Of a stretch of DNA of 64,000 nucleotides, positions 2,022-46,917 are shown one piece after another. Position numbers and translations under genes: made by a program. Numbering within the stretch: position 1 is the stretch's first letter; each line of letters opens with the position of its first letter. This DNA is from a bacterium (GTDB taxonomy: Bacteria > Patescibacteriota > Microgenomatia > UBA1400 > PJMF01): NCBI GenBank assembly GCA_027620445.1, contig JAQBYG010000001.1, positions 5,115 to 69,114 of the forward strand, written 5' to 3'. Under the pieces are notes generated by a model. That model was not told where the DNA came from. It worked only from the letters and a program-made list of their open reading frames with translations, and searched no databases.

Positions 2022-3062
2022 AATAGCAATGCACCGATAATCGGTCTCTCACCCATGGACGGCGTGACCGATCTTCCGTATCGACATATCTACAAAAAGT
2101 ACGGTAACCCTGCAGTGATGTATACAGAGTTTGCGAGTGTTGAAGGCTTATGTCGTGGAGCAGCGCAATTGCTCAAAGACTTTTTGTATGACGAAACCCA
2201 ACGGCCGATCGTGGCGCAAATTTATGGCACAACTCCCAAGTTCTTTCGCCAAATGGCTACAGTCCTTTGTGAGCTTGGATTTGATGGTGTTGATATCAAC
2301 ATGGGTTGCCCTGCCAAAAATGTGGCACATAGTGGCGCGGGTGCTGCGCTCATCAAGACTCCAGACCTGGCACAAGAGATCGTGAGAGAAACAAAAGCGG
2401 GTGTCGAAGACTGGCTGCAAGGAATTGCAGTGAGTGATTTGCCTGATATAACGACAGAAATTGCCAAGATTGTCCAAACGCGTCACGACGCCCTGCCGCA
2501 AGCGTATCAAGAAAAAAGAGCCATTCCGGTGAGTGTCAAAACACGCGTCGGGTATGACAAGCCAGTGATAAGCGATTGGATCCCTCGCCTGCTTGAACTT
2601 GCACCCGCGTGTATCGCGCTGCACGGCCGCACCCTTCGCCAACAATATTCAGGACTGGCAGACTGGGAACGGATTGGTGAGGCGGTTGAGCTGGCGTCTG
2701 GAACCAACACCCTGATGCTTGGTAACGGCGATGTCGATTCTCTCGCTACTGCGCACGAGCGGATAACAACCTATAAACTCGATGGGGTGCTGATCGGACG
2801 AGCGAGTTTCGGCAATCCGTATATTTTCAAGGAAGCGGTCAGTGTGGATGACCCATCACTCTTTTCGATTGCCATCGAACACGCACAGTTGTTTGAAGAC
2901 ACCTATCAACAAAACGATCACTATGCTTTTTTGCCCATGCGCAAAAACTTGGGCTGGTATGTGCGCTCTATTCCCAATGCAAAAGAAGTGCGAGCAGAAC
3001 TCTTCCAGGCTAATTCTGGTGAGCAAGTCAGAACGATACTTACGCGCTACGGGCTGGTGTAA
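2007..3062 (+). CDS. dus: tRNA-dihydrouridine synthase (Dus family)
   Basis: 351 aa. MDGVTDLPYRHIYKKYG..., the FMN-binding TIM barrel, and the catalytic Cys in DINMGCPAKNV, characteristic of DusB/NifR3. Confidence 0.85.
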   Translation: MQLWQNSNAPIIGLSPMDGVTDLPYRHIYKKYGNPAVMYTEFASVEGLCRGAAQLLKDFLYDETQRPIVAQIYGTTPKFFRQMATVLCELGFDGVDINMGCPAKNVAHSGAGAALIKTPDLAQEIVRETKAGVEDWLQGIAVSDLPDITTEIAKIVQTRHDALPQAYQEKRAIPVSVKTRVGYDKPVISDWIPRLLELAPACIALHGRTLRQQYSGLADWERIGEAVELASGTNTLMLGNGDVDSLATAHERITTYKLDGVLIGRASFGNPYIFKEAVSVDDPSLFSIAIEHAQLFEDTYQQNDHYAFLPMRKNLGWYVRSIPNAKEVRAELFQANSGEQVRTILTRYGLV

Positions 3063-3066
3063 ATGC

Positions 3067-3072
3067 TATAAT
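3067..3072 (+). promoter_or_regulatory. Candidate -10 box (TATAAT) 15 nt upstream of tRNA-Val
   Basis: Exact TATAAT hexamer immediately after the dus stop and before the tRNA 5' end. No convincing -35 identified. Confidence 0.3.
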
Positions 3073-3086
3073 CGCTAGAGTTTCTT

Positions 3087-3163
3087 GGTCGCATAGCTCA
3101 GTTGGTTAGAGCGCTGCATTCACATTGCAGAGGTCAAAGGTTCGAATCCTTTTGCGACCACCA
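3087..3163 (+). tRNA. tRNA-Val (anticodon CAC), CCA encoded
   Basis: Cloverleaf read by hand: acceptor GGTCGCA/TGCGACC, D-arm GCTC-AGTTGGTTA-GAGC, anticodon stem CTGCA/TGCAG with loop TTCACAT (CAC), T-arm AGGTC/GGTTCGAATCC-like AAAGG-TTCGAAT-CCTTT, discriminator A, then CCA. Confidence 0.9.
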
Positions 3164-3351
3164 AGAAGTTGCGAGATATGTCATGATTCTATTTGATGTC
3201 CAAATTACAGCAGAAAAACAAGCGATTGTTCCCTAAGCCCTCTCTCACAGAAGAACCTTATCCATATAGAAATTTAATACGAATGAATCCGGTCTTTCAT
3301 ATTTTACTCGAACCAATGTCTAGTCCAGAATAACCTGTTACAATTATCTCC

Positions 3352-3930
3352 GTGATTCTCTCAAAGATAAATGTTAAAAAACTGTTAAAAAGAAGATTAC
3401 TACTAGCACTTGTAGTCATATCTCTCATTTTCTTTAGATACGATTTTGTGTTCTCTCTCTACTCTTATGCTGTTGCTCCTTATGACACTTTTTGGAGCAT
3501 CTTAAACACAAAAGTTTTTCACGACAACGCAGTGACTGGCTTGAGCCTGCAATATCTAGAAACTACCAATCCCAAATTTAATTTTGACAAAATCTTGAAA
3601 AACCAAAACGGTGAGGGCGGATACACAATTAGCATTTTTCTCAATAAGCTCAGAGTTGTCGCCCCAGATAAGAGCATTCTATTAGATAGCTCGCAACTCT
3701 TCCCATCATCATATTTAGTTTCTCACGCTTTGCAGGTGCTGGTGCACAATATTATCATTTTTTCTCTTGTATTTTTTCTCTACACAAGCATACGAGCAAA
3801 TAATTTCCGCCTAAATTTGGAGTATTTTAAAAGCACTTTTTCAATACCCATTATCATAGGACTCGGCATACCAATCACCCTCTTCCTGTTGTTTCTTATG
3901 CTTATACTAGTCACAAGGCCATTCATATAA
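3352..3930 (+). CDS. Hypothetical polytopic membrane protein
   Basis: 192 aa. Several hydrophobic helices and no recognisable domain. AT-rich relative to flanks. In the same frame as the next two ORFs (see findings). Confidence 0.4.
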   Translation: MILSKINVKKLLKRRLLLALVVISLIFFRYDFVFSLYSYAVAPYDTFWSILNTKVFHDNAVTGLSLQYLETTNPKFNFDKILKNQNGEGGYTISIFLNKLRVVAPDKSILLDSSQLFPSSYLVSHALQVLVHNIIIFSLVFFLYTSIRANNFRLNLEYFKSTFSIPIIIGLGIPITLFLLFLMLILVTRPFI

Positions 3931-4176: not shown

Positions 4177-5709
4177 ATGCTTGCCAAACAGCTACAACTA
4201 ACCTTAGTAGCCCTCGCCCTCGTTTGCTACCTCCCCTTTTTGGGCAACAAACTGGTTTGGGATGACGAACAGTTTATCTATAGCAACGCGCATGTGCGCA
4301 ACTTTGCAGTTGGGAAAATCTTCACCACCAGCACAACTGATGGCGCTGGAATTATTAGTAACTACTACCGCCCATTTACGACCTTGAGCTTTGCAATTGA
4401 TCAGCAATTTTGGGGACTTAATCCAGTTGGTTACCACTTGCCAAATATGTTGCTCCATCTCGGATCAGGGCTATTGCTGTTCTACCTGCTGTACCTCATT
4501 GGACTTTCTCGGAACGTGAGTTTTTGGATCAGCGCCCTTTTTATCATTCATCCGATCCAAACAGAAGCAGTCGTGTATGCCAACTCGCGCGGAGATTCGC
4601 TCTACACATTTTTTGCCATCCTCGCGCTGACTAGTTTTTTGTATGCTTACAAACAGAAATCGTTGGCGCTGCGCTTTTATGAACAAAGGTTTGTGATCAA
4701 ACCACTCATCTTTGCAATCGCCACACCGCTGTTGTACCTCAGTAGTATTCTGAGCAAGGAAATCGGTATCGCCACACTTGGTTTATTTGGTCTTGTCTAC
4801 TTACAACAAATTTTAACAAATCAAAAGAAACATGCATTTCGAAAAATAGATATTGCAGTTCTGGTCGGAGTGGGAGTTATCGCGGGCGTGTATTTGTGGC
4901 TTCGTGGCAGTGTACTCAACTTTGATAATTCTTACAACTTCTACAGTAATGCCTCACTTTACGGTTCAAGTATTGTGGTGCGACTACTCACCTTTAGCAA
5001 GGTCATTTGGATTTATTTTCAGCTCCTCCTTGCACCATTCCCACTCCACATGGAACGGGATATCGAGCTCGTCACAACGCTGCGCTCAATCTTTCCTTGG
5101 GCAACACTTGCGCTCGTCACGGCTCTGAGCTGGCTTGGCTGGAGGGAGTATAAAAATTCGAGACAAGTATGGATTTGGCTTGGAGTTGGTTGGTTCTTTG
5201 GCATGCTTGCACCCGTTTCGGGTATTATTCCGATAAACGGCATACTGTATGAGCACTGGTTGTATGTACCAATGATCGGGTTTTTTATCTGTATTTTTGG
5301 GTTGTTAAAAAATAGTAAAAAGTACTTCAAAAGTAGTGAAAAATATGTACATATCATTTTATCTATCTTTGCAGCAATTTTGATTATTCTGACCCTGAGA
5401 CAAAACTATATTTGGGGCTCACCGATTCGGTTTTACTCTCACTTGCTTCAATACACGGAAAGCGCGCGGATTCATAATAATGTCGCCATGGCGTACGCCG
5501 ATGAACAGGAGCTTGAAAAAGCCTTAGAACACTACGAAAGGTCGCTTGAAATCGCACAGGTATATCCACAAACCTACTACAACATGGCAAATCTCTACAT
5601 CGCGATGGGGAAGTACGAAGAAGCAATTCCACTCTTGGAAAAGGCCCTAGAGCTTGCGCCAGAGTTTGGCTTGGCAGAACAAAAATTGAACGCGCTACAC
5701 TCTAGGTAA
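4177..5709 (+). CDS. Polytopic membrane protein with C-terminal TPR repeats (PMT_2/TMTC-like putative glycosyltransferase family)
   Basis: 510 aa. N-terminal TM helix followed by WDDEQFIYSNAHV motif typical of bacterial TMTC/PMT-like TPR proteins, about 10 TM helices, and a C-terminal TPR region (NVAMAYADEQELEKALEHYERSLEIAQVYPQTYYNMANLYIAMGKYEEAIPLLEKALEL). Confidence 0.6.
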   Translation: MLAKQLQLTLVALALVCYLPFLGNKLVWDDEQFIYSNAHVRNFAVGKIFTTSTTDGAGIISNYYRPFTTLSFAIDQQFWGLNPVGYHLPNMLLHLGSGLLLFYLLYLIGLSRNVSFWISALFIIHPIQTEAVVYANSRGDSLYTFFAILALTSFLYAYKQKSLALRFYEQRFVIKPLIFAIATPLLYLSSILSKEIGIATLGLFGLVYLQQILTNQKKHAFRKIDIAVLVGVGVIAGVYLWLRGSVLNFDNSYNFYSNASLYGSSIVVRLLTFSKVIWIYFQLLLAPFPLHMERDIELVTTLRSIFPWATLALVTALSWLGWREYKNSRQVWIWLGVGWFFGMLAPVSGIIPINGILYEHWLYVPMIGFFICIFGLLKNSKKYFKSSEKYVHIILSIFAAILIILTLRQNYIWGSPIRFYSHLLQYTESARIHNNVAMAYADEQELEKALEHYERSLEIAQVYPQTYYNMANLYIAMGKYEEAIPLLEKALELAPEFGLAEQKLNALHSR

Positions 5710-5732: not shown

Positions 5733-6374
5733 ATGTTGCGACAATCACTCGTGCTCCTGAGAGAACTCCTCTGGCCACAAGCTTGCGCTGGCTGTGGTAC
5801 CTGGTTTTCTCCCCTCTGCCCCTATTGCTACAACAAACTGTCGTTTCATCTCTTACCCAAAACCTATGAGCTGAGTGACAAATCTACTTTGACTGTCTGG
5901 AGCATGCTGGAGTTCGACGAGCGCGTGCGAACGCTCATTCACCGCCTCAAGTATCAAGGTATGAGTGAGACAGCACCGCTACTGGCTGACCTGTTGTACT
6001 TTGCGAGCTACATCCCGCCCGCTGATATCATTGTTCCCATTCCCTTACACCGGAGCCGAAAGAAACTGCGCGGCTACAACCAATCAGAGCTCATCGCCAA
6101 ACGACTAGCACACCATCTGCAAATTCCTGTTCTTCCTGCAGTACTACGCCTTGTGGCATCTGCCCAACAGGTAAAAACTACTTCTCGCGAAGAACGACTT
6201 CACAACTTAGCAGGACACTTTGTTCTGGCTCCAGAGTATCAAGCAGCTTTGCTCGGCAAACGAATCTTGCTCATCGACGACGTCCTCACCACTGGCGCGA
6301 CCCTCACTGCCTGCGCAGAGGTGCTGCTGAGAGCAGAGCCAAAAGAGATTTTGGGGCTCACTGTTGCACATTGA
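5733..6374 (+). CDS. comFC: ComF-family phosphoribosyltransferase (ComFC-like)
   Basis: 213 aa. N-terminal double CxxC zinc ribbon (CAGCGTWFSPLCPYC) plus C-terminal PRTase PRPP-binding loop ILLIDDVLTTGATL. Confidence 0.75.
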   Translation: MLRQSLVLLRELLWPQACAGCGTWFSPLCPYCYNKLSFHLLPKTYELSDKSTLTVWSMLEFDERVRTLIHRLKYQGMSETAPLLADLLYFASYIPPADIIVPIPLHRSRKKLRGYNQSELIAKRLAHHLQIPVLPAVLRLVASAQQVKTTSREERLHNLAGHFVLAPEYQAALLGKRILLIDDVLTTGATLTACAEVLLRAEPKEILGLTVAH

Positions 6375-6385
6375 GCAAAATACCC

Positions 6386-6391
6386 TATAAT
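6386..6391 (+). promoter_or_regulatory. Candidate -10 box (TATAAT) 12 nt upstream of tmRNA 5' end
   Basis: Exact TATAAT between the comF stop and the GGGGATG 5' end of the tmRNA. Confidence 0.35.
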
Positions 6392-6403
6392 CTTTGGCAC
6401 GTC

Positions 6404-6817
6404 GGGGATGTATTGCTTTGACGTATGGCGCTCATTAACATCGGCAGGTCATCTTTGATAACAGATGTAAAACAGATCAAAACATAACTGCAAATTTCAT
6501 TCGCAGCACAGTTGCAAAGGTGAATCAAGTTGCTACGCAAGTAGCTTCCTACTTCTCCCCAGCTCCTTCAGCTTACGCTTTCGCGTAATCTGACATTTAG
6601 CATTTCACTCTCATGGGTGGTGAGTGCTAGGTGGGAACCCAGCCCGTGTGACTTGATGAATTGTTCGGTTTATTCATCACCAAGCTAATAACGACCGAGG
6701 TTGTCGCTGTATGGTTTGACCATTTCCCGCAGCGGCAATTAACCAAAGATGTTCTATACCTGTAGATGCTGTTAGTGTTCACGTACGGACGGGGGTTCAT
6801 TGCCCCCCATCTCCACA
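6404..6817 (+). ncRNA. ssrA: tmRNA (SsrA), standard one-piece form
   Basis: 5' GGGGATGTATTGCTTTGACG (compare E. coli GGGGCUGAUUCUGGAUUCGACG) and 3' GGACGGGGGTTCATTGCCCCCCATCTCCA-CA. T-arm GGGGG/TTCATTG/CCCCC. Acceptor stem 5' GGGGATG with 3' CATCTCC includes the G3:U70 wobble (alanine identity), then discriminator A. Internal tag reading frame ends ...SPAPSAYAFA-TAA (stop at 6586..6588). Lies in a 460-nt gap with no credible ORF. Confidence 0.85.
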
Positions 6818-14738: not shown

Positions 14739-15525
14739 CTATGCAAAAAATCGCAGGTCTTTTTTCGTTTTAGGAGGAAAAAACTTTAATCCCCAACCAT
14801 CGATGACATGCTTTGAATTTTTTGCCAGTTTTTCATAACTCAGCTCATCAAAACGCCAGTAGCTTCCCACAGGCTTGTTGTACTCAAACATATGATATAT
14901 AGGATAACAATATAAGTCTGCAATCTGAATTCCAATTGTAGTATCAGATTGGGAGAAGAGTAATTTTTCGACAATATTGGGACATTTTTTCCATACAGCT
15001 CCATCCTGCCATCTCATTTTGTTATGTAAGCGACTCAGTTCGTTCCCCATAAAATGTTTCTCAACTTGACCTTCCCTAGGATCGATTATGCAAATACCAA
15101 GAGAACTTTTGGATTCTAAATATTTCTGAAATCTCTCAACCAAAAAATACATACGCAATGTCATATGGATTTTGTGATGGATACTGCTCCCAATATGTCT
15201 TTTTGTCGATAACAACACTATACAAAACGACAGGAATTTGTTTCAAAAAGACAGTGACTTCACTTTCCAGCTCATTATATTTATCTCTGGAATGTAGCTT
15301 TAGTGGCGATGATTGAGCTAGGTCGGGGTTTGCGTAGCGCAAGAAATTTGATTTTATTTCAACCTCTGGATCTTGATAATACTTTTGTTTGATCGCTCGC
15401 AGCTGTGTCTCAATTTTCTTATTATCACTCTCATGAATAATGCAACCAGACAATACGAAAAACTGTTTTCCTGCCTGGGATAATGGAATCGTATCCCCTG
15501 ATTCATCGATATACATCAAATGCAT
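14739..15525 (-). pseudogene. DUF3800-family gene interrupted by a +1 frameshift in an A6/T6 homopolymer
   Basis: Track ORFs 15136..15525 (MHLMYIDESGD..., the DUF3800 N-terminus) and 14739..15218 (C-terminal half with the IQIADL motif) overlap in different frames. Removing one T from the TTTTTT run (plus-strand A6 at 15142..15147) joins them as ...DIAYVFLVERFQKYL.... Confidence 0.6.
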
Positions 15526-27463: not shown

Positions 27464-27943
27464 ATGCAAAAAATCACCAAACTCCTCGCCTCAATCGTCG
27501 GTTGTGAACTTGTCGGGATTATCGGTGGCGTGAGCACAACCTTGTCGATCAGCACTTGGTATGTCACGCTCGAAAAACCGTTCTTTTCTCCGCCGAACTG
27601 GCTCTTTGGTCCCGTCTGGACAACTTTGTATCTTTTGATGGGAGTTTCATTTTTTCTGTTGTGGCAGCAAGGCTGGAAGAAAAAACAAGTTCGGACTGCT
27701 CGCAACTACTTCTTGGCACAACTCGGGCTCAACTTTATCTGGACTCCGGTATTCTTCGGCCTGAGATCCCCCGCGCTGGCACTGGTGATAATTCTTGGCT
27801 TACTTGTCCTTATCGTGCTGACGATCAAACACACATATAAAGTGTCGCGCTGGGCTGCATACTTGCTGGTACCCTACTTGCTCTGGGTGAGTTTTGCGAC
27901 GGCGCTCAATGCGGCGATAGTGGGGTTGAATTATGCGAAATAA
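27464..27943 (+). CDS. tspO: TspO/MBR family tryptophan-rich sensory protein
   Basis: WYVTLEKPFFSPPNWLFGPVWTTLYLLMG...LAQLGLNFIWTPVFFG...AAYLLVPYLLWVSFATALNAAIVGLN. Five TM helices with all TspO signature residues. Confidence 0.85.
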   Translation: MQKITKLLASIVGCELVGIIGGVSTTLSISTWYVTLEKPFFSPPNWLFGPVWTTLYLLMGVSFFLLWQQGWKKKQVRTARNYFLAQLGLNFIWTPVFFGLRSPALALVIILGLLVLIVLTIKHTYKVSRWAAYLLVPYLLWVSFATALNAAIVGLNYAK

Positions 27944-28463
27944 ATCCATCAAAAAAATTGCCATTTACCAAACTAAGAGCGGTGCGATTGTATTTCGTGA
28001 CGATTCGAAGCGAGAAACAATTTGGGGGGATTTGAATCAAATTGCAGATTTGTTTGGTCGTGATAAATCGGTTATTTCTCGTCACATCAATAATATTTAT
28101 AAATCAAGAGAACTTGAAGAGGCAGCAACTGTTGCAAAAATTGCAACAGTTCAAAAAGAAGGTGGTAGAGAGGTAACTCGTGAGATTGAACATTTTAACC
28201 TTGATATGATTTTATCTGTCGGATACAGGGTAGATTCTAAACAAGCAACGCAATTTCGCATCTGGGCAACCAAAACCCTCAAGCAGCACATTGTCCAGGG
28301 CTACACTATCAACAAAAAACGCGTTGGCGAGAATTACGAAAAATTCATGCAAGCGGTGGCGGATGTGAAAGCCTTGACTCTCCTTTTGGCAGAAAGTAAT
28401 CCGAAAGATAAAGATAAAATGATTGGGCTAACCTTGTTACTTCTGAATGGGGGAAGACAATAG
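27933..28463 (+). CDS. RhuM-family protein, N-terminal domain (ends at in-frame TAG)
   Basis: IAIYQTKSGAIVFRDDSKRETIWGDLNQIADLFGRDKSVISRHINNIYKSRELEEAATVAKIATVQKEGGREVTREIEHFNLDMILSVGYRVDSKQATQFRIWATKTLKQHIVQGYTINKKR matches the Virulence_RhuM N-domain. Overlaps the tspO stop by 11 nt. Confidence 0.75.
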   Translation: MRNKSIKKIAIYQTKSGAIVFRDDSKRETIWGDLNQIADLFGRDKSVISRHINNIYKSRELEEAATVAKIATVQKEGGREVTREIEHFNLDMILSVGYRVDSKQATQFRIWATKTLKQHIVQGYTINKKRVGENYEKFMQAVADVKALTLLLAESNPKDKDKMIGLTLLLLNGGRQ

Positions 28464-34020: not shown

Positions 34021-34269
34021 ATGCAAAGATATCAAGTATATTTTGAACCCAGCACAATGGACACGCTACAACAACTTGGGCAAATGTCTGGTGTTTCGAG
34101 ATCACACTTGTTGCAAGAATTGGCAGATATACTTGCCACACGCTATAAATCCTTTGTAAAACAGGAACAAAAAACCATGGGAAATATTCTAAACTTATCT
34201 GGAATCATCTCTGGAAAATCAACTACACACACAGCTACAAAATCTGATGCCGAGTACTTCGGCATATAA
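34021..34269 (+). CDS. Ribbon-helix-helix (CopG-like) antitoxin, VapB-like
   Basis: RYQVYFEPSTMDTLQQLGQMSGVSRSHLLQELADILA fits the RHH beta-alpha-alpha fold. Its stop is 1 nt before the PIN gene start. Confidence 0.55.
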   Translation: MQRYQVYFEPSTMDTLQQLGQMSGVSRSHLLQELADILATRYKSFVKQEQKTMGNILNLSGIISGKSTTHTATKSDAEYFGI

Positions 34270-34270
34270 A

Positions 34271-34690
34271 ATGAAAATCCTTCTTGATACCAGCGTACTT
34301 ATTTCGCTACAGGTTGATACAGAAGCGACACATGCAAAAGTACAAAAATACCTGGCAGAACAACAAAGACTTGGCAGTAGATTCCTGGTTACAGACTATG
34401 TGCTTGATGAACTATTTACCAGAATCTTGTATGACTTTGGTGCCAAGGCTGCAAAAGTATCCACAAAAGCTATCGCCAAAGAACTAGAAAACGGTTCTCT
34501 CCACTTATTTCCTATTTCTTCTGACCTCTTCAATCGAGCACAAGACATTTTTGTTGAAATGGCTACCAGAAAATTCTCATTTACAGATGCTTCTACCTTG
34601 GCCGTATATCGCCACTATAAAATTGATGAAATCTGTACGCTTGATGGAGGATTTCACAAAGCAGGGGCTGTTATCAGCTATCTTGACTAA
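34271..34690 (+). CDS. vapC: PIN-domain toxin (VapC-like)
   Basis: MKILLDTSVLIS (first Asp), DYVLDE and FTDASTLAV acidic motifs. About 140 aa. Confidence 0.8.
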   Translation: MKILLDTSVLISLQVDTEATHAKVQKYLAEQQRLGSRFLVTDYVLDELFTRILYDFGAKAAKVSTKAIAKELENGSLHLFPISSDLFNRAQDIFVEMATRKFSFTDASTLAVYRHYKIDEICTLDGGFHKAGAVISYLD

Positions 34691-38438: not shown

Positions 38439-38642
38439 GTGATGAAAAATATATTTCTGCAACAATTAGAAGAAAATGAAGAATCCAGACAAGTAAGAAT
38501 TCGCGTGTTTGGACCACCTCCTGCAAACGAAGACGAGGGCATTAGACCAGGAAAATCTGTGTCCGAAATCTTGAATGCAATGAAAAAAGCCTCGAAAGAA
38601 AATCTGCTGCGTGTCCCCCGAAGTAATGCAATCACCAACTAA
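38439..38642 (+). CDS. Small acidic protein, putative antitoxin partner of downstream PIN protein
   Basis: 67 aa. Overlaps the PIN gene start. No fold assignable. Confidence 0.3.
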
Positions 38643-39144
38643 GTACCCTTACTTACTGCTAGACACTTGTATAATCGAATACCTTCTTGATAAATATCAA
38701 CAACCTGCTGTTACACAACAAATTTCTGAGTGGGCTGGAGATTCTTTTGATTTAGCAATATCTGAAATTACCTATGCAGAATTAGTTGACGGTGCGTTTA
38801 AAGAAAAAATAGAGAAAGTAACCCGCTTACTTGATTCGTACACAAGATTTTGGGTTTTAAAAGAAATACTAAGAGCTGCGGGAATTATTTCGAATGTATA
38901 TAGAACGCAGGGCAATAGCACTGTTGGGTCAAGTTTATCGGATAAGGTGATAGCTGCCACAGCTTTTTCATATAATCTTCCTGTTATCACAGCTGATGTG
39001 AATGATTTTCCCTATCCATTTTTTACTAGCGATGCTAGTGAAAACATAAAATATAGAAAAAAGAACAAGGATCATTATATTGCAATCAGCATTCTCAAAC
39101 CAAATGTGACTATCCTCAACTATTGGTTTAGTAAAACTAAATAA
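38611..39144 (+). CDS. PIN-domain protein (VapC-like)
   Basis: YLLLDTCIIEYLL, ISEITYAEL, DKVIAATAFSYNLPVITADVNDF carry the conserved acidic residues of the PIN fold. AT-rich gene. Confidence 0.7.
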   Translation: MSPEVMQSPTKYPYLLLDTCIIEYLLDKYQQPAVTQQISEWAGDSFDLAISEITYAELVDGAFKEKIEKVTRLLDSYTRFWVLKEILRAAGIISNVYRTQGNSTVGSSLSDKVIAATAFSYNLPVITADVNDFPYPFFTSDASENIKYRKKNKDHYIAISILKPNVTILNYWFSKTK

Positions 39145-42408: not shown

Positions 42409-43032
42409 TTATTCTGCGGTATAAACCGGATAAGCCATATCTTGAATGTCATCGATTACAAGATCCTCATTTGCCACAACAGTTTCTATTTTCACTTCCC
42501 CGTCTACAAAGATCTCCACTCTTCTAACACTCCCTTTTGACTGATAATCCTCCATTACGTCAAGCTCATCCCGTCCCAGCAAAGGCTGTTTATCCAAAAA
42601 CTGATAAAGAAAGAAAAGAGGGTCTCCGTGAGAGCAGATGATGTATGATTTTCCTGACGATCGATCCAAGCTCTCATAAAAGTCAACGATTCTGTCTTGA
42701 ATATCTTGGTTTGTTTCCCCACCCAGCTCATCAGTATGGGCAAAGAAATGACTCCAATCCTCTTCCCAATAACCTTGATAAGCAGAGTGTGTTTCAAGTA
42801 GTCGCTTGTCAAAGATTATCTCTACTTTGTCTCCAGCTATAGCTTGGCTTGTCTGCTTACATCGAAGTACGGAGCTACTATAAATTGCATCTACTTTTTT
42901 GCTGGCAAAATAATCTCTGAGCCTTTCTGCCTGAGTAATTCCTTGCTCAGACAGTGGCACTGGTAATCTGCCGGGCAGAATTTTTCTGGGATTTGCATAC
43001 TCACAGTGGCGCACAAGATAAAGGGTGGTCAC
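42409..43032 (-). CDS. Histidine phosphatase superfamily protein (phosphoglycerate-mutase-like)
   Basis: LYLVRHCEYANP (RHG-type catalytic His motif with G to C) and a C-terminal His region. Confidence 0.7.
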   Translation of the reverse strand: MTTLYLVRHCEYANPRKILPGRLPVPLSEQGITQAERLRDYFASKKVDAIYSSSVLRCKQTSQAIAGDKVEIIFDKRLLETHSAYQGYWEEDWSHFFAHTDELGGETNQDIQDRIVDFYESLDRSSGKSYIICSHGDPLFFLYQFLDKQPLLGRDELDVMEDYQSKGSVRRVEIFVDGEVKIETVVANEDLVIDDIQDMAYPVYTAE

Positions 43033-43033
43033 G

Positions 43034-43672
43034 TTATTTTTTTGTCCTTATAACCGCCACCCCCTGTGACTGTTCTGTTGGATACGCCCATGCCTTTGTA
43101 AATTGCGCAAATGAAACTTTGCGCTCCTTTTGCGGTGGTAAACCAGGATCCTGCAAAAAAAGATGATCGCCGCTGTGATTATAAATCAAAACAAAGTGGC
43201 CAGAGTAACCCGGCTCATTATTGAGTGCTTTCAAATTGACATTACAGATAACAAGAGCACTCTCGTCCAAAGCCGCTGTGATGTCGACTATATGCGCCTG
43301 TCGCGTTTCTCTTGAACTTTTTTTGATGAATTTTTGTGCGATTGCCTGCTCTTGTGGAATATCCGAGTGTTCAATCTGACTCTGCCCAACTGGTTTGCCA
43401 TAAAAATCAAGCAGGTACTTCTCACCTTGTTCTGCAAACTCCTGGTAGTCGAACAAGCTAATACTCTGCACCGACAAACCCTTTTCTGCCAACCAAAGCA
43501 AACCAGCTGTCGGCCAAGTCCATAATCCCTCAACCTTAGCGGAAATTTTTTCTAACTCCTTCCACAAATAATTTTCATGCGGGAAGTACTGCTTCAACAG
43601 CATCTTTAAAACTGATTGGTAGCAATGGGTGTTATCTGGGGTATTGGGGAAAAATGGTGGGGGGTTTTGCAT
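43034..43672 (-). CDS. Papain-like cysteine peptidase fold protein (peptidase C39-like domain)
   Basis: Candidate catalytic Cys in NTHCYQSVLKML and His in YSGHFVLIYNHSGDHLFLQDPG, with spacing like C39-like/BtrH-type domains. No signal peptide. Confidence 0.45.
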   Translation of the reverse strand: MQNPPPFFPNTPDNTHCYQSVLKMLLKQYFPHENYLWKELEKISAKVEGLWTWPTAGLLWLAEKGLSVQSISLFDYQEFAEQGEKYLLDFYGKPVGQSQIEHSDIPQEQAIAQKFIKKSSRETRQAHIVDITAALDESALVICNVNLKALNNEPGYSGHFVLIYNHSGDHLFLQDPGLPPQKERKVSFAQFTKAWAYPTEQSQGVAVIRTKK

Positions 43673-43678
43673 ACTATT

Positions 43679-44167
43679 TTATGAAAGCTTCACATCCTCT
43701 ATACTCAACTCCTTAGGATTATCATCAGCGCGCTTACCCGTTCGCACTATCCAACCCAAACTCAGTAGTTCATTTGCTCCATCTTCTGGTACATAGTCCG
43801 AATATTTTACTTCACCCTCAATACTCTGATAGTTGCCTTTAATCAATTGAACTACATATTGATAATCATGCGCATTTTCGAGTTTGTAGCGCCTACCTCT
43901 AAAAAGCAATTCTTGCTTGTTACCAATGTCCTCATCTGCAATTTCATCAAAAGGCTCTGGTGCTTTGTCAGAATAGAGCAACAATTCTTCACCAGGAATA
44001 ATGAGTAGCAGAGAGTGGTCATCAAAAATGGCTTTGAAATACCCCTCATCACCCAGATTAATTGAACGAAACTCTGCAAAGCCGACTATTTCTTTTTGCT
44101 TTCCTCTGATTGCAATTTTTCGGTTGGGATTTTCTAACAATGCATTTAGCAGTTCTTTGATTTTCAT
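43679..44167 (-). CDS. Hypothetical protein
   Basis: 162 aa acidic protein. 6-nt gap to the downstream C39-like gene. No recognisable motif. Confidence 0.4.
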   Translation of the reverse strand: MKIKELLNALLENPNRKIAIRGKQKEIVGFAEFRSINLGDEGYFKAIFDDHSLLLIIPGEELLLYSDKAPEPFDEIADEDIGNKQELLFRGRRYKLENAHDYQYVVQLIKGNYQSIEGEVKYSDYVPEDGANELLSLGWIVRTGKRADDNPKELSIEDVKLS

Positions 44168-44180
44168 AGCTTTCTCCTCT

Positions 44181-44531
44181 TTATACTCCCCTCGAAAGAT
44201 TAGAGGTTATATACGTATTTAAGCTCACACCCTCCTGTTTTGCCTGATGTGCCAAAGATCTATGTAAAAACTTTGGCAACCGCAGATGCAGCTTTCCGCT
44301 ATAGTCATCTCTTGCTGGCTCAGAAATCGAAATCTTTCGCTCCAATGCTGCCGTAATCCAAGCCTTTTTTGCATCCTCGATCATTGAGATTGCGGCTTGC
44401 TCTGAGTCAGCCTCAGAAAAACAACCAGGTAGTTCCTCCACCTCGACAAAATATGAACCGTCGCCATTCTTTTTGAGTCGAATTGTGTAGTCTAGATCTA
44501 GATAGTAGTTTAGTTGTTTATTTTGCTTCAT
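44181..44531 (-). CDS. hicB: HicB-family antitoxin
   Basis: YYLDLDYTIRLKKNGDGSYFVEVEELPGCFSEADSEQAAISMIEDA (HicB RNase-H-like N-domain), then RHH-like LHLRLPKFLHRSLAHQAKQEGVSLNTYITSNL. Confidence 0.8.
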   Translation of the reverse strand: MKQNKQLNYYLDLDYTIRLKKNGDGSYFVEVEELPGCFSEADSEQAAISMIEDAKKAWITAALERKISISEPARDDYSGKLHLRLPKFLHRSLAHQAKQEGVSLNTYITSNLSRGV

Positions 44532-44757
44532 TTTCGATGAGCTCCCTAACTCGCTTAACGTATATTGCTTTGATAAATGGTCGCTTATACGGCACAGTTA
44601 TTTGTTTTTCCTTTTTGTAGTACACATAGTGGCTACTGCCACCGCTCGGTTGCCTACAAGCAAATCCATGTTCTAACAAAATAGCGTCAAGCACTTCGAA
44701 ACGGATGTTCTTAGGACTAGTAGTGAGTTTTTTGACTCGTTTCTGACGCTTTGTCAC
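44518..44757 (-). CDS. hicA: HicA-family mRNA interferase toxin
   Basis: 79 aa basic protein. LEHGFACRQPSGGSSHYVYYKKEKQITVPYKRP matches the HicA dsRBD-like core (G-S-H motif). 14-nt overlap with hicB. Confidence 0.7.
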   Translation of the reverse strand: MTKRQKRVKKLTTSPKNIRFEVLDAILLEHGFACRQPSGGSSHYVYYKKEKQITVPYKRPFIKAIYVKRVRELIENEAK

Positions 44758-44795
44758 TCTTTATATGATACCATATGTGGTATCATATACAAGAA

Positions 44796-45395
44796 TCAGT
44801 CAACAATAATTTGAGTATAAATAAAACAGTGTTTCTTGATATATTTTACAAACTCAGCTTGCTTGGTTTTCGGCAATTTTTTTATGGCCTCATACAACTT
44901 CTTTTTCGCCAATCTCAAACTTCCAAATACGGCCGTTATGTTCACCACCCAATTTCTTCTTTCTTTCCGATATAAAATTGGAGAACTTCCTGTTGAATTA
45001 ATCCCATCTTTTCTCAAATTGTAATGGTGGGATAAACCATTGCGAACTCTCCAGAGTGCATTCGATTGTCTTTTATTCATTCCAAACCAAGTCTCTGCCG
45101 ATTCTTTGAAAAATTTTTGAGTCTCACCTTGTTTTGGAGATCGCATGTGCCAGACCCTAGACAAGCAATCTATCGCCGCAAAATAAGTCAGTAGGTAGGA
45201 AAAAATTGGCAAATGTAAGGTCAGATGTTCAAACAATTTGTCATCAATTTTTTCCTTACTTCTCAAACTATTAAAAAAAATGCCGTTGCAGAACTGCATG
45301 TCTCTGAATGCTACAAGTAAGACACTTTTTCTATTTGTGCCAATTTTAGTGAGCACGCCATCACTAATAAAAAACTCTTCAATGTAATCATTCAT
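44796..45395 (-). CDS. Hypothetical protein with candidate HEPN Rx4H motif
   Basis: 199 aa, very AT-rich gene. ALWRVRNGLSHHY contains R118-N-x3-H123 (plus-strand 45027..45044) in a predicted helical context. No other similarity recognised. Confidence 0.4.
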   Translation of the reverse strand: MNDYIEEFFISDGVLTKIGTNRKSVLLVAFRDMQFCNGIFFNSLRSKEKIDDKLFEHLTLHLPIFSYLLTYFAAIDCLSRVWHMRSPKQGETQKFFKESAETWFGMNKRQSNALWRVRNGLSHHYNLRKDGINSTGSSPILYRKERRNWVVNITAVFGSLRLAKKKLYEAIKKLPKTKQAEFVKYIKKHCFIYTQIIVD

Positions 45396-45415: not shown

Positions 45416-46330
45416 TTAATTAAAATACCCCAACCCCCACCACTCGATTGGGTCAACAAATCGATAATTTCTATTCAACTTGGTAAGTTTCTCCATCTCA
45501 GCATCACTCAACTCAAAATCAAACACATTGGCATTTTCCGCAATCCGGTCTGGGTTGGTTGATTTTGGAATCACAACCAAACCGCGCTGCAGTGACCAGC
45601 GGATCAGCACCTGCGCAGGAGTCTTATTGTGTGCTTTCGCAATAGAAAGCACTGCTGCATCACTAATCGGCTTATTCGAAGCATCTCCGTGGGAACCGAG
45701 CGGTGAGTATGCAGTGACCGCAACATCCTTTGCCAAACAAAAGTTGACCAACTCTGGTTGGGCGTTGTAGGGATGGATCTCAACCTGGTTCATGACTGGT
45801 TTGACTTTGGCGTACGTGAGTAAATCAATCAACATGGCTGTAGTGAAGTTAGCTACACCAATAGATTTGACCAAACCTTTTTCAACCAACGACTCCATCG
45901 CGCGCCAAGTGTCTTGGATAGAGACAGGCTCGGTCATAATTAGGCCAGTTTCGTCGAGCGGTTCTTTTTCTTTACTTGGCTTGAATGCAATGCCCCAGTG
46001 GATGAGATAGAGATCTAGGTATTCAAGTTGTAAATCTGTCAAAGTTTGTCTACATGCTTCCTCAACTACATCGGGGTGGTGCTTATTATTCCAGAGTTTG
46101 CTCGTCACAAAAATATCTTCTCTGGCAACATCTCCTTGCGCAAAAACACGAGAAAAAGCTTCGCCCACTTCGGGCTCATTCATATAAATCGCTGCACAAT
46201 CGATGTGTCGATACCCTATCTTAAGCGCAGTTTCTACCGCTGCACCAACTTTGCCTGGTTCGGAGCGCCAGGTGCCGAGACCAAGCTGGGGCATAGTCTT
46301 GCCATTGTTGAGAGTGATAGAGTTGGTCAT
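45416..46330 (-). CDS. Aldo/keto reductase
   Basis: ITLNNGKTMPQLGLGTW, IGYRHIDCAAIY, and a C-terminal IPKS-type motif (VVIPKSTNPDRI). Confidence 0.85.
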   Translation of the reverse strand: MTNSITLNNGKTMPQLGLGTWRSEPGKVGAAVETALKIGYRHIDCAAIYMNEPEVGEAFSRVFAQGDVAREDIFVTSKLWNNKHHPDVVEEACRQTLTDLQLEYLDLYLIHWGIAFKPSKEKEPLDETGLIMTEPVSIQDTWRAMESLVEKGLVKSIGVANFTTAMLIDLLTYAKVKPVMNQVEIHPYNAQPELVNFCLAKDVAVTAYSPLGSHGDASNKPISDAAVLSIAKAHNKTPAQVLIRWSLQRGLVVIPKSTNPDRIAENANVFDFELSDAEMEKLTKLNRNYRFVDPIEWWGLGYFN

Positions 46331-46373
46331 ATGGGTTGATTCTATCATCATCGTCGAGTACCATACCCCTACC

Positions 46374-46913
46374 GTGCTGTCAGAACTCATCTCGCTCCTC
46401 AGTTATCTCGGGATTACCGCACAAAGTGTGGTTCCCATCGGGATTGTGGGATTTTTCCTCTGGTGGTCACTGTCCAAAAAATTAGCGCAGGTAGAAGATA
46501 GAACGGCCGATATCGAAAAAAGCGTCGTCGAAATCCAAGGAATTTTGACCAATAAGTATCGCCTAAAGTTTCAACAAAGTATTGCTAGTAAATACGGCAA
46601 GTCCAATAGTCCCATCGTACTGAAGTCGACATTTAAACCATTTATAACCAAGCCAAAGCTGGATAAACAGATAGAAACGAAAAAACCACAGCTGCTAGAG
46701 TGGCTCGAGGACCAAGAGCCGCAGACTGGCCTCGATGCCCAAGATGCTATATCTGCGCTTGTGCTTTCAGACGAAATTGACCATTTTCTAGATTTGAAAT
46801 CCTACAAGCAGTACCTGTATGAACAGGGTAAAACCTCGGAGGATGCACAAGGCATCCTCATCCTCTATTTATTTGAGGTCTTGATTCCGGAACTGAAAAT
46901 TTCGAAGGCGTAA
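46374..46913 (+). CDS. Hypothetical membrane-anchored protein
   Basis: Track ORF 46203..46913 trimmed to the first in-frame GTG after the oppositely oriented AKR start. N-terminal TM (VVPIGIVGFFLWWSL), then a charged domain. Confidence 0.35.
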   Translation: MLSELISLLSYLGITAQSVVPIGIVGFFLWWSLSKKLAQVEDRTADIEKSVVEIQGILTNKYRLKFQQSIASKYGKSNSPIVLKSTFKPFITKPKLDKQIETKKPQLLEWLEDQEPQTGLDAQDAISALVLSDEIDHFLDLKSYKQYLYEQGKTSEDAQGILILYLFEVLIPELKISKA

Positions 46914-46917
46914 GCTC

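Follow-up and report, generated by a model that had tools for sequence, protein, structure and literature searches.

The interval between the aldo/keto reductase (AKR) gene and pnp in the 64,000-nucleotide stretch of Patescibacteriota DNA analysed here (the window) is quite probably a plastic slot that gathers unrelated accessory genes, not the seat of one system. Five of its genes, g199, hicA, hicB, g162 and g212, had been put forward in a first-pass annotation as a single undescribed toxin–antitoxin (TA) or defence module. That proposal did not survive comparison with relatives: g199 is an independent cassette, the pairing of g162 with g212 occurs only in the closest relative, and the PADLOC models recognise none of the five proteins. 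Instead, hicA-hicB would be a self-contained type II TA pair, g199 appears to have been inserted independently as a very low-GC single-gene cassette, and g162 and g212 may be neighbours through local synteny, without functional coupling.

Gene content and synteny of the AKR–pnp interval

The five co-directional, tightly spaced minus-strand open reading frames (ORFs) of the first-pass annotation are all present at the coordinates it claimed. The cluster does not directly adjoin pnp as described there, since a sixth co-directional gene, encoding a His_Phos_1 histidine phosphatase, separates g212 from pnp. The features of the interval are as follows.

44796–45395, minus strand: g199, ORF of 199 aa
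44794–45420, no strand: limits of the g199 cassette, from blastn breakpoints against L009, with no homology in between
44762–44789, no strand: palindrome with 12-nt arms and an N4 spacer, putative HicB operator
44518–44757, minus strand: hicA, ORF of 79 aa with a GTG start
44181–44531, minus strand: hicB, ORF of 116 aa, overlapping hicA by 14 nt
43679–44167, minus strand: g162, ORF of 162 aa, 13-nt gap from hicB
43034–43672, minus strand: g212, ORF of 212 aa, 6-nt gap from g162
42409–43032, minus strand: His_Phos_1 histidine phosphatase (Pfam 92.7 bits), 1 nt after g212

The window belongs to the small genome of an uncultivated bacterium, whose closest relatives are metagenome-assembled genomes (MAGs) of Paceibacterota/Patescibacteria. 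Three syntenic genomes, which share the backbone infB-rpsO-AKR...pnp-deoC-SOD, were compared, and between AKR and pnp they carry the following genes.

Window: g199, hicA, hicB, g162, g212, histidine phosphatase
L009/L010/L015 (Paceibacterota; pnp 90% identical): Gp49 (HigB-like), HTH, alpha/beta hydrolase, hicA, hicB, g162, g212
L031 (g212 75% identical): HTH, hydrolase, cupin, hicB remnant, RibD_C-like 170-aa gene at the g162 position, g212, two small ORFs

The breakpoints between the window and L009 are sharp. Nucleotide homology (blastn) stops right after AKR, is absent over 45420–44794 (g199), and is back 3 nt past the g199 stop codon, at the hicA operator; it then runs over 44793–43050, to the end of g212, at 77.7% identity, breaks over the phosphatase (43049–42413) and appears again at pnp. 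At the g199 position L009 holds a 1683-nt Gp49-HTH-hydrolase segment. The breakpoints thus delimit g199 precisely as a cassette of one gene, whose slot is occupied in L009 by another TA pair. The gene is missing from this slot in both syntenic relatives (L009 and L031), as is the phosphatase from its own position. The hicAB-g162-g212 block is common to the window and its closest relative (L009/L010/L015) only. In L031 the g212 homologue stays on the pnp side and adjoins the RibD_C gene where g162 would be. The three-way synteny makes a standard HicAB pair cleanly separable from its neighbours.

Base composition agrees with the earlier description of the stretch as low-GC accessory DNA. The GC content is 0.353 for g199, 0.404 for hicA, 0.422 for hicB, 0.387 for g162 and 0.437 for g212, against a mean of 0.469 (sd 0.046) over the 66 genes of the window and 0.46–0.50 for the flanking AKR, rpsO, infB and pnp. 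The claim that all five genes lie visibly below their flanks stands strongly for g199 and g162 and moderately for hicAB; for g212 the difference is merely marginal. Tight packing and shared orientation carry less information. Same-strand gaps in the window have a median of 13 nt, 29 of the 53 being no longer than 20 nt, and the minus strand carries nearly all genes, so that with spacing this tight genome-wide neither packing nor co-directionality is informative on functional linkage here. The locus offers a corrective in this respect: packing, co-directionality and low GC alone do not define a system in a streamlined Patescibacteria-type genome.

Co-occurrence in other genomes

Absence of co-occurrence in other genomes, which the first-pass annotation had itself named beforehand as evidence against a module, is what a wider survey found. 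When all cluster proteins were searched by tblastn against 32 loci, g212 or hicAB stood beside g162 only in L009/L010/L015 and was absent at L004–L008 and L016–L027. At about 15 further g162 loci, in Saccharibacteria, Dojkabacteria, Gracilibacteria and MAGs labelled as other taxa, g212, hicA and hicB never lay within 5 kb. The neighbours of g162 homologues elsewhere include NUDIX, RidA and ATP synthase genes, among others. Homologues of g199 were met in four contexts (L001, L002, L028 and L029), which had no shared neighbour and no small partner ORF. None of the five proteins matched a model of PADLOC-DB v2 at E<=1, and no tRNA, Rfam RNA or flanking direct repeat that might mark a mobile element was found at the locus.

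One module or several

Read as a single undescribed TA or defence module, with two RNase toxins and a peptidase effector, the five genes could draw on their co-directional, tight and low-GC arrangement, on the adjacency of two toxin-like genes and on the preservation of hicAB-g162-g212 in one relative. Yet neither syntenic relative has g199 in the slot, g199 never lies beside hicAB elsewhere, g162 and g212 are unlinked beyond one close relative, PADLOC returns no matches, tight packing is genome-wide, and hicAB has a putative operator of its own. The single-module reading is largely refuted by the missing co-occurrence, and we regard it as very improbable. A smaller unit is conceivable, in which g162 and g212, possibly with the phosphatase, would form a lineage-restricted pair; the acidic g162 might, for example, inhibit the C39-like hydrolase, serve as its substrate or act as its adaptor. 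The 6-nt spacing and the preservation of both genes in L009/L015 at 77% identity speak for it. So do, for the phosphatase, two other loci: L018, where its homologue (51% identity) stands some 600 nt away from g162, and L004, where a His_Phos_1 gene lies near g162. However, the g212 of L031 (75% identical) has a RibD_C gene for a neighbour where g162 would stand, about 15 g162 loci are without g212 within 5 kb, and the g212 family (>275 clusters) dwarfs that of g162 (about 30), which leaves such a pair improbable. Least credible of all is a three-gene TA variant, hicA-hicB-g162, with g162 as an accessory comparable to a TAC chaperone. The 13-nt gap after hicB and the adjacency of the three genes in L009/L015 would fit it, but hicAB is found at no other g162 locus, the hicB remnant of L031 is present without g162, and HicB is full-length with both domains and by homology needs no extra factor.

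The plastic-slot reading is preferred over these alternatives, and some observations weigh against it. The hicA, hicB, g162 and g212 genes are separated by gaps of at most 13 nt and could be co-transcribed. They are kept as a block in one relative, so a lineage-specific coupling is conceivable, and the survey covered only about 20 independent neighbourhoods. The composition of the rest of the window is in keeping with a plastic slot. Its other lowest-GC genes are isolated toxin-type or mobile genes amid housekeeping genes, and the defence or abortive-infection island that had been proposed dissolves accordingly into low-GC accessory genes scattered singly through the window.

The profile searches of the three proteins that had been listed as unknown gave a divided result: g199 and g162 do stay below the thresholds, and g212 exceeds the Pfam cutoff for C39. 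Two leads emerge from this. The g199 family is unannotated, carries the full HEPN active-site signature and has no partner, and would add a solitary RNase type to an already diverse superfamily. The g162 family combines a confident predicted fold with the lack of a close solved relative. Neither of these leads touches a long-standing open question.

g199, a HEPN-like protein without a partner

The g199 protein itself has no significant match in Pfam, NCBIfam, PHROGs or PADLOC. An exhaustive profile search of 1.84 billion representative proteins returned just 35 relatives, counted as clusters at 50% identity, and 34 sequences were aligned (mean identity 29%). Only three columns of this alignment are invariant, namely F96, R118 and H123, while at least 90% of the sequences share D76, R80, L114, W115 and Y125, and N119 follows R118 in nearly all members. 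The RNxxxH motif recognised in the first-pass annotation is therefore genuine, with R118 and H123 both present and family-invariant (R118-N-x3-H123). In the HEPN superfamily helix 3 ends with an Rx4-6H motif, the arginine of which is followed directly by a polar residue (N, D or H), and helix 2 carries an upstream acidic residue within an Ex3[KR] motif (PMC3710099). In g199, whose secondary structure is predicted to be all-alpha, R118-N-x3-H123 lies at the C-terminal end of a predicted helix (108–124), and D76-x3-R80, in which D replaces E, lies in an earlier predicted helix (62–81), with an insert between the two helices.

Weak profile matches point in the same direction. Sub-threshold matches of g199 family members comprise HEPN_Swt1 (three members), HEPN_Cthe2314 (E=0.0031) and HEPN_RiboL-PSP (E=0.015), and further ones NTase_sub_bind, HepT-like and the NCBIfam HepT_toxin (two members). 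In member P0156, the sole one for which positions were printed, the NTase_sub_bind and HEPN_Swt1 matches cover the motif helix. HEPN-type families make up 5 of the 29 Pfam families among the weak matches. By our own rough estimate HEPN families constitute about 0.2% of Pfam, a share at which such a proportion would lie far above chance.

On motifs and sub-threshold matches together, it is on balance likely that g199 belongs to the HEPN superfamily and works like a HEPN RNase. Several results count against this assignment: no g199-family profile match to any HEPN family reaches threshold, the 34-member profile found no HEPN or other meaningful match among PDB sequences, and an AlphaFold2 (AF2) model built from three sequences was poor (pLDDT 50.5), too poor to show the fold. 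The family consensus searched against Pfam gave nothing useful either. The protein might instead be a helical one with another role, such as a regulator, in which the R...H pair is structural or ligand-binding, an explanation that we consider possible though doubtful. Such a reading has to contend with the invariant R and H, the N that mostly follows R and the upstream D-x3-R, which together make up the full signature of PMC3710099, and with the recurrence of HEPN families among the weak matches. It also sits poorly with a basic (pI 9.87), predicted all-alpha protein without Cys/His ligands of the HNH type, and with the presence of a HigB-like toxin pair at the same slot in L009. An assignment as HNH endonuclease, suggested by a weak PHROG match, was rejected on the predicted all-alpha structure, the lack of a metal-ligand pattern and the conservation of R and H only.

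As a HEPN RNase, g199 would most resemble the solitary or minimal representatives (Abi-type, Swt1-like, RiboL-PSP, Cthe_2314-like and HepT), with which it has in common the R-N-x3-H at a helix end, the upstream [DE]x3[KR], a basic chain of some 200 aa that is predicted to be all-alpha, and a location within variable accessory DNA. Unlike HepT/MNT, it has neither an MNT gene nor any other partner gene, and no PADLOC Abi model matches it; across the 34 family members, too, the PADLOC models gave no consistent match. No known domain corresponds to the region conserved near the N-terminus (EEFF...RxSVLL...RD). Most likely the protein would act, in the manner of toxins or abortive-infection proteins, as a dimeric RNase that has no partner gene, is independent of metal and uses R118 and H123. 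It would be kept inactive by means other than a neighbouring antitoxin, since none lies adjacent.

A tblastn search of phage and plasmid collections gave no match to g199, so that nothing points to its having come from a phage or plasmid; a metagenome search with a three-sequence alignment returned no relatives. In L028 (196–792) and L029 (219–815) only some 200 nt separate the g199-family gene from the end of its contig, as might happen where assemblies break in variable or repeated stretches. More tentatively, g199 may found an unmodelled, always solitary HEPN family (about 35 clusters, about 200 aa) of antitoxin-less abortive-infection RNases in Patescibacteria-like genomes, with the AKR|hicA junction as a recurrent landing site for toxin cassettes.

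The hicAB pair and its putative operator

That hicAB is a genuine type II pair, as had been proposed, is borne out, with HicB above the Pfam cutoffs and HicA divergent but rightly placed. HicB matches PF05534 at 47.5 bits (cutoff 21; residues 71–110), PF15919 at 33.7 bits (cutoff 27; residues 15–73) and phrog_497 at E=1.3e-13, and combines a HicB-like N-terminal domain with a DNA-binding C-terminal domain of the RHH type. A search of solved structures detected no sequence match for HicB. For HicA the Pfam evidence tells against the assignment, the HicA_toxin profile (PF07927) giving 17.1 bits, under its cutoff of 27. Two PHROG toxin families (E=7e-4 and 3e-3) and weak matches over residues 24–70 to the solved HicA structures 4c26 and 6g26 (E ~1) were also obtained. 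The protein is basic (pI 10.15) and carries a GGSSH43 motif, and its assignment can be considered safe, judging by size, basic charge, GGSSH43, position and the overlap with hicB.

In the 38-nt spacer upstream of hicA lies a perfect palindrome, TATATGATACCA-N4-TGGTATCATATA, whose 12-nt arms are 100% complementary and whose core, GrTACCA-N4-TGGTATC, is kept at the same place in L009. It probably overlaps the hicAB promoter and serves as the operator to which the RHH domain of HicB would bind. By analogy with the family, HicA would cleave mRNA and HicB would bind HicA directly and so neutralise the toxin, while the C-terminal RHH domain of HicB would repress the operon at the 12-4-12 palindrome.

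Compared with known type II HicAB systems (e.g. Burkholderia pseudomallei HicAB, 4c26; HicA 6g26), the pair has the same toxin-first order and overlapping genes, as expected for translational coupling, and likewise a small basic toxin with G-x-S-H, an antitoxin with HicB-like and RHH domains and an upstream palindrome. Its toxin differs from known HicA proteins in scoring low with Pfam (17 bits, cutoff 27) and in being extended at the N-terminus by a basic stretch of some 20 residues. hicAB is otherwise standard here, with nothing else unusual. The hicA and hicB genes of L009 (3892–4465, against 44181–44757 in the window) stand in the same order and encode proteins 91% (HicA) and 93% (HicB) identical to those of the window. 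Identity to L009 is lower for the flanking proteins, at about 77% for g162, g212 and AKR and 90% for pnp. This difference between hicAB and its neighbours reflects either stronger constraint or more recent exchange. In L031 the hicB remnant (5181–5486) retains 66% identity over 104 aa, is called as an 80-aa ORF and stands without hicA; it represents TA decay at the same locus.

g212, a C39-like protein

The first-pass annotation had called g212 a cytoplasmic C39-like protein, and this fits the conservation of its Cys, His and Asp, a score above the Pfam C39 cutoff and the lack of a hydrophobic segment, the location remaining a matter of probability. The protein matches Peptidase_C39 (PF03412) at 24.4 bits (cutoff 22), and its nearest solved relative is 3erv, a 'putative C39-like peptidase' (E=8.5e-4). 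Its homologues fill more than 275 clusters, many of them with PF13529, PF11814 or PF09778 matches, and in an alignment of 37 sequences His159 is invariant, while at least 90% of the sequences share Cys17 and Asp175. Neither a hydrophobic segment nor a signal peptide is present, and lacking a hydrophobic segment g212 is probably cytoplasmic.

The C39-related families form one papain-like cluster, within which C39_2 comprises single-domain peptidases of unknown substrate (PMC10318531). Like the C39/C39_2 group (PF03412 and PF13529, with the related DUF3335 PF11814, GUCD1-type PF09778 and BtrH_N; 3erv), g212 is single-domain and has Cys...His...Asp in the expected order. Unlike the C39 peptidases that process bacteriocin leaders, it is neither fused to nor beside an ABC exporter in the window. 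No such exporter adjoins the gene or its homologue in the window, L009, L031 or L012, and only L013 has one upstream. Without an adjoining exporter, g212 is by context not a bacteriocin-leader peptidase. The L012 homologue is solitary. In L013 (3189–5645) the g212 homologue follows 6 nt after a gene for a 601-aa ABC exporter (ABC_membrane + ABC_tran), an arrangement reminiscent of the fused C39-ABC bacteriocin exporters, here split into two genes. The g212 family is large and widespread, and it occurs in housekeeping contexts. By family, g212 itself would be a lineage-conserved, cytoplasmic C39_2-like cysteine hydrolase.

g162 and the phosphatase

The 162-aa protein is acidic, as the first-pass annotation had noted, with a pI of 4.83. 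Its family, at about 30 clusters, is far smaller than that of g212; the predicted fold is mostly beta, and the motifs NxxDYQYV and EGEVxFSDY are strongly conserved. Sub-threshold matches to DUF4178 (PF13785) were given by 4 of 27 family members (best E=0.016), the window protein itself giving none. On this basis g162 is possibly a distant relative of DUF4178, which it resembles in size, while its family has conserved motifs of its own.

The g162 homologue of L018 is followed, some 600 nt downstream, by a homologue of the phosphatase (6096–6683, 51% identity), a membrane protein being encoded in between. In L004 a His_Phos_1 gene (2984–3661) lies near the g162 homologue, and a DUF4256 gene is also near. 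The proximity of g162 and phosphatase genes in these two loci may, as a weak indication, reflect either residual synteny or a real association.

Other accessory genes in the window

Between rpsO and AKR the window contains about 436 nt of extra DNA (46482–46917), where the spacer in L009 measures 78 nt. A plus-strand ORF at 46203–46913 (236 aa as listed) covers this segment. Its product has a hydrophobic segment at the N-terminus and matches no family, and the 5' part of the ORF overlaps AKR as listed.

Further low-GC accessory genes stand elsewhere in the window. These include a DUF3800 gene (14739–15218, minus strand), a gene of the virulence- or prophage-associated RhuM family (27933–28463, plus strand) and two solitary PIN-domain genes on the plus strand, at 34247–34690 (43.2 bits) and 38611–39144 (36.9 bits). 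The latter lies between deoC and SOD, on the opposite strand to them, and in L009 deoC and SOD are adjacent with a 9-nt gap; this PIN-domain gene is another single-gene insertion of the toxin type.

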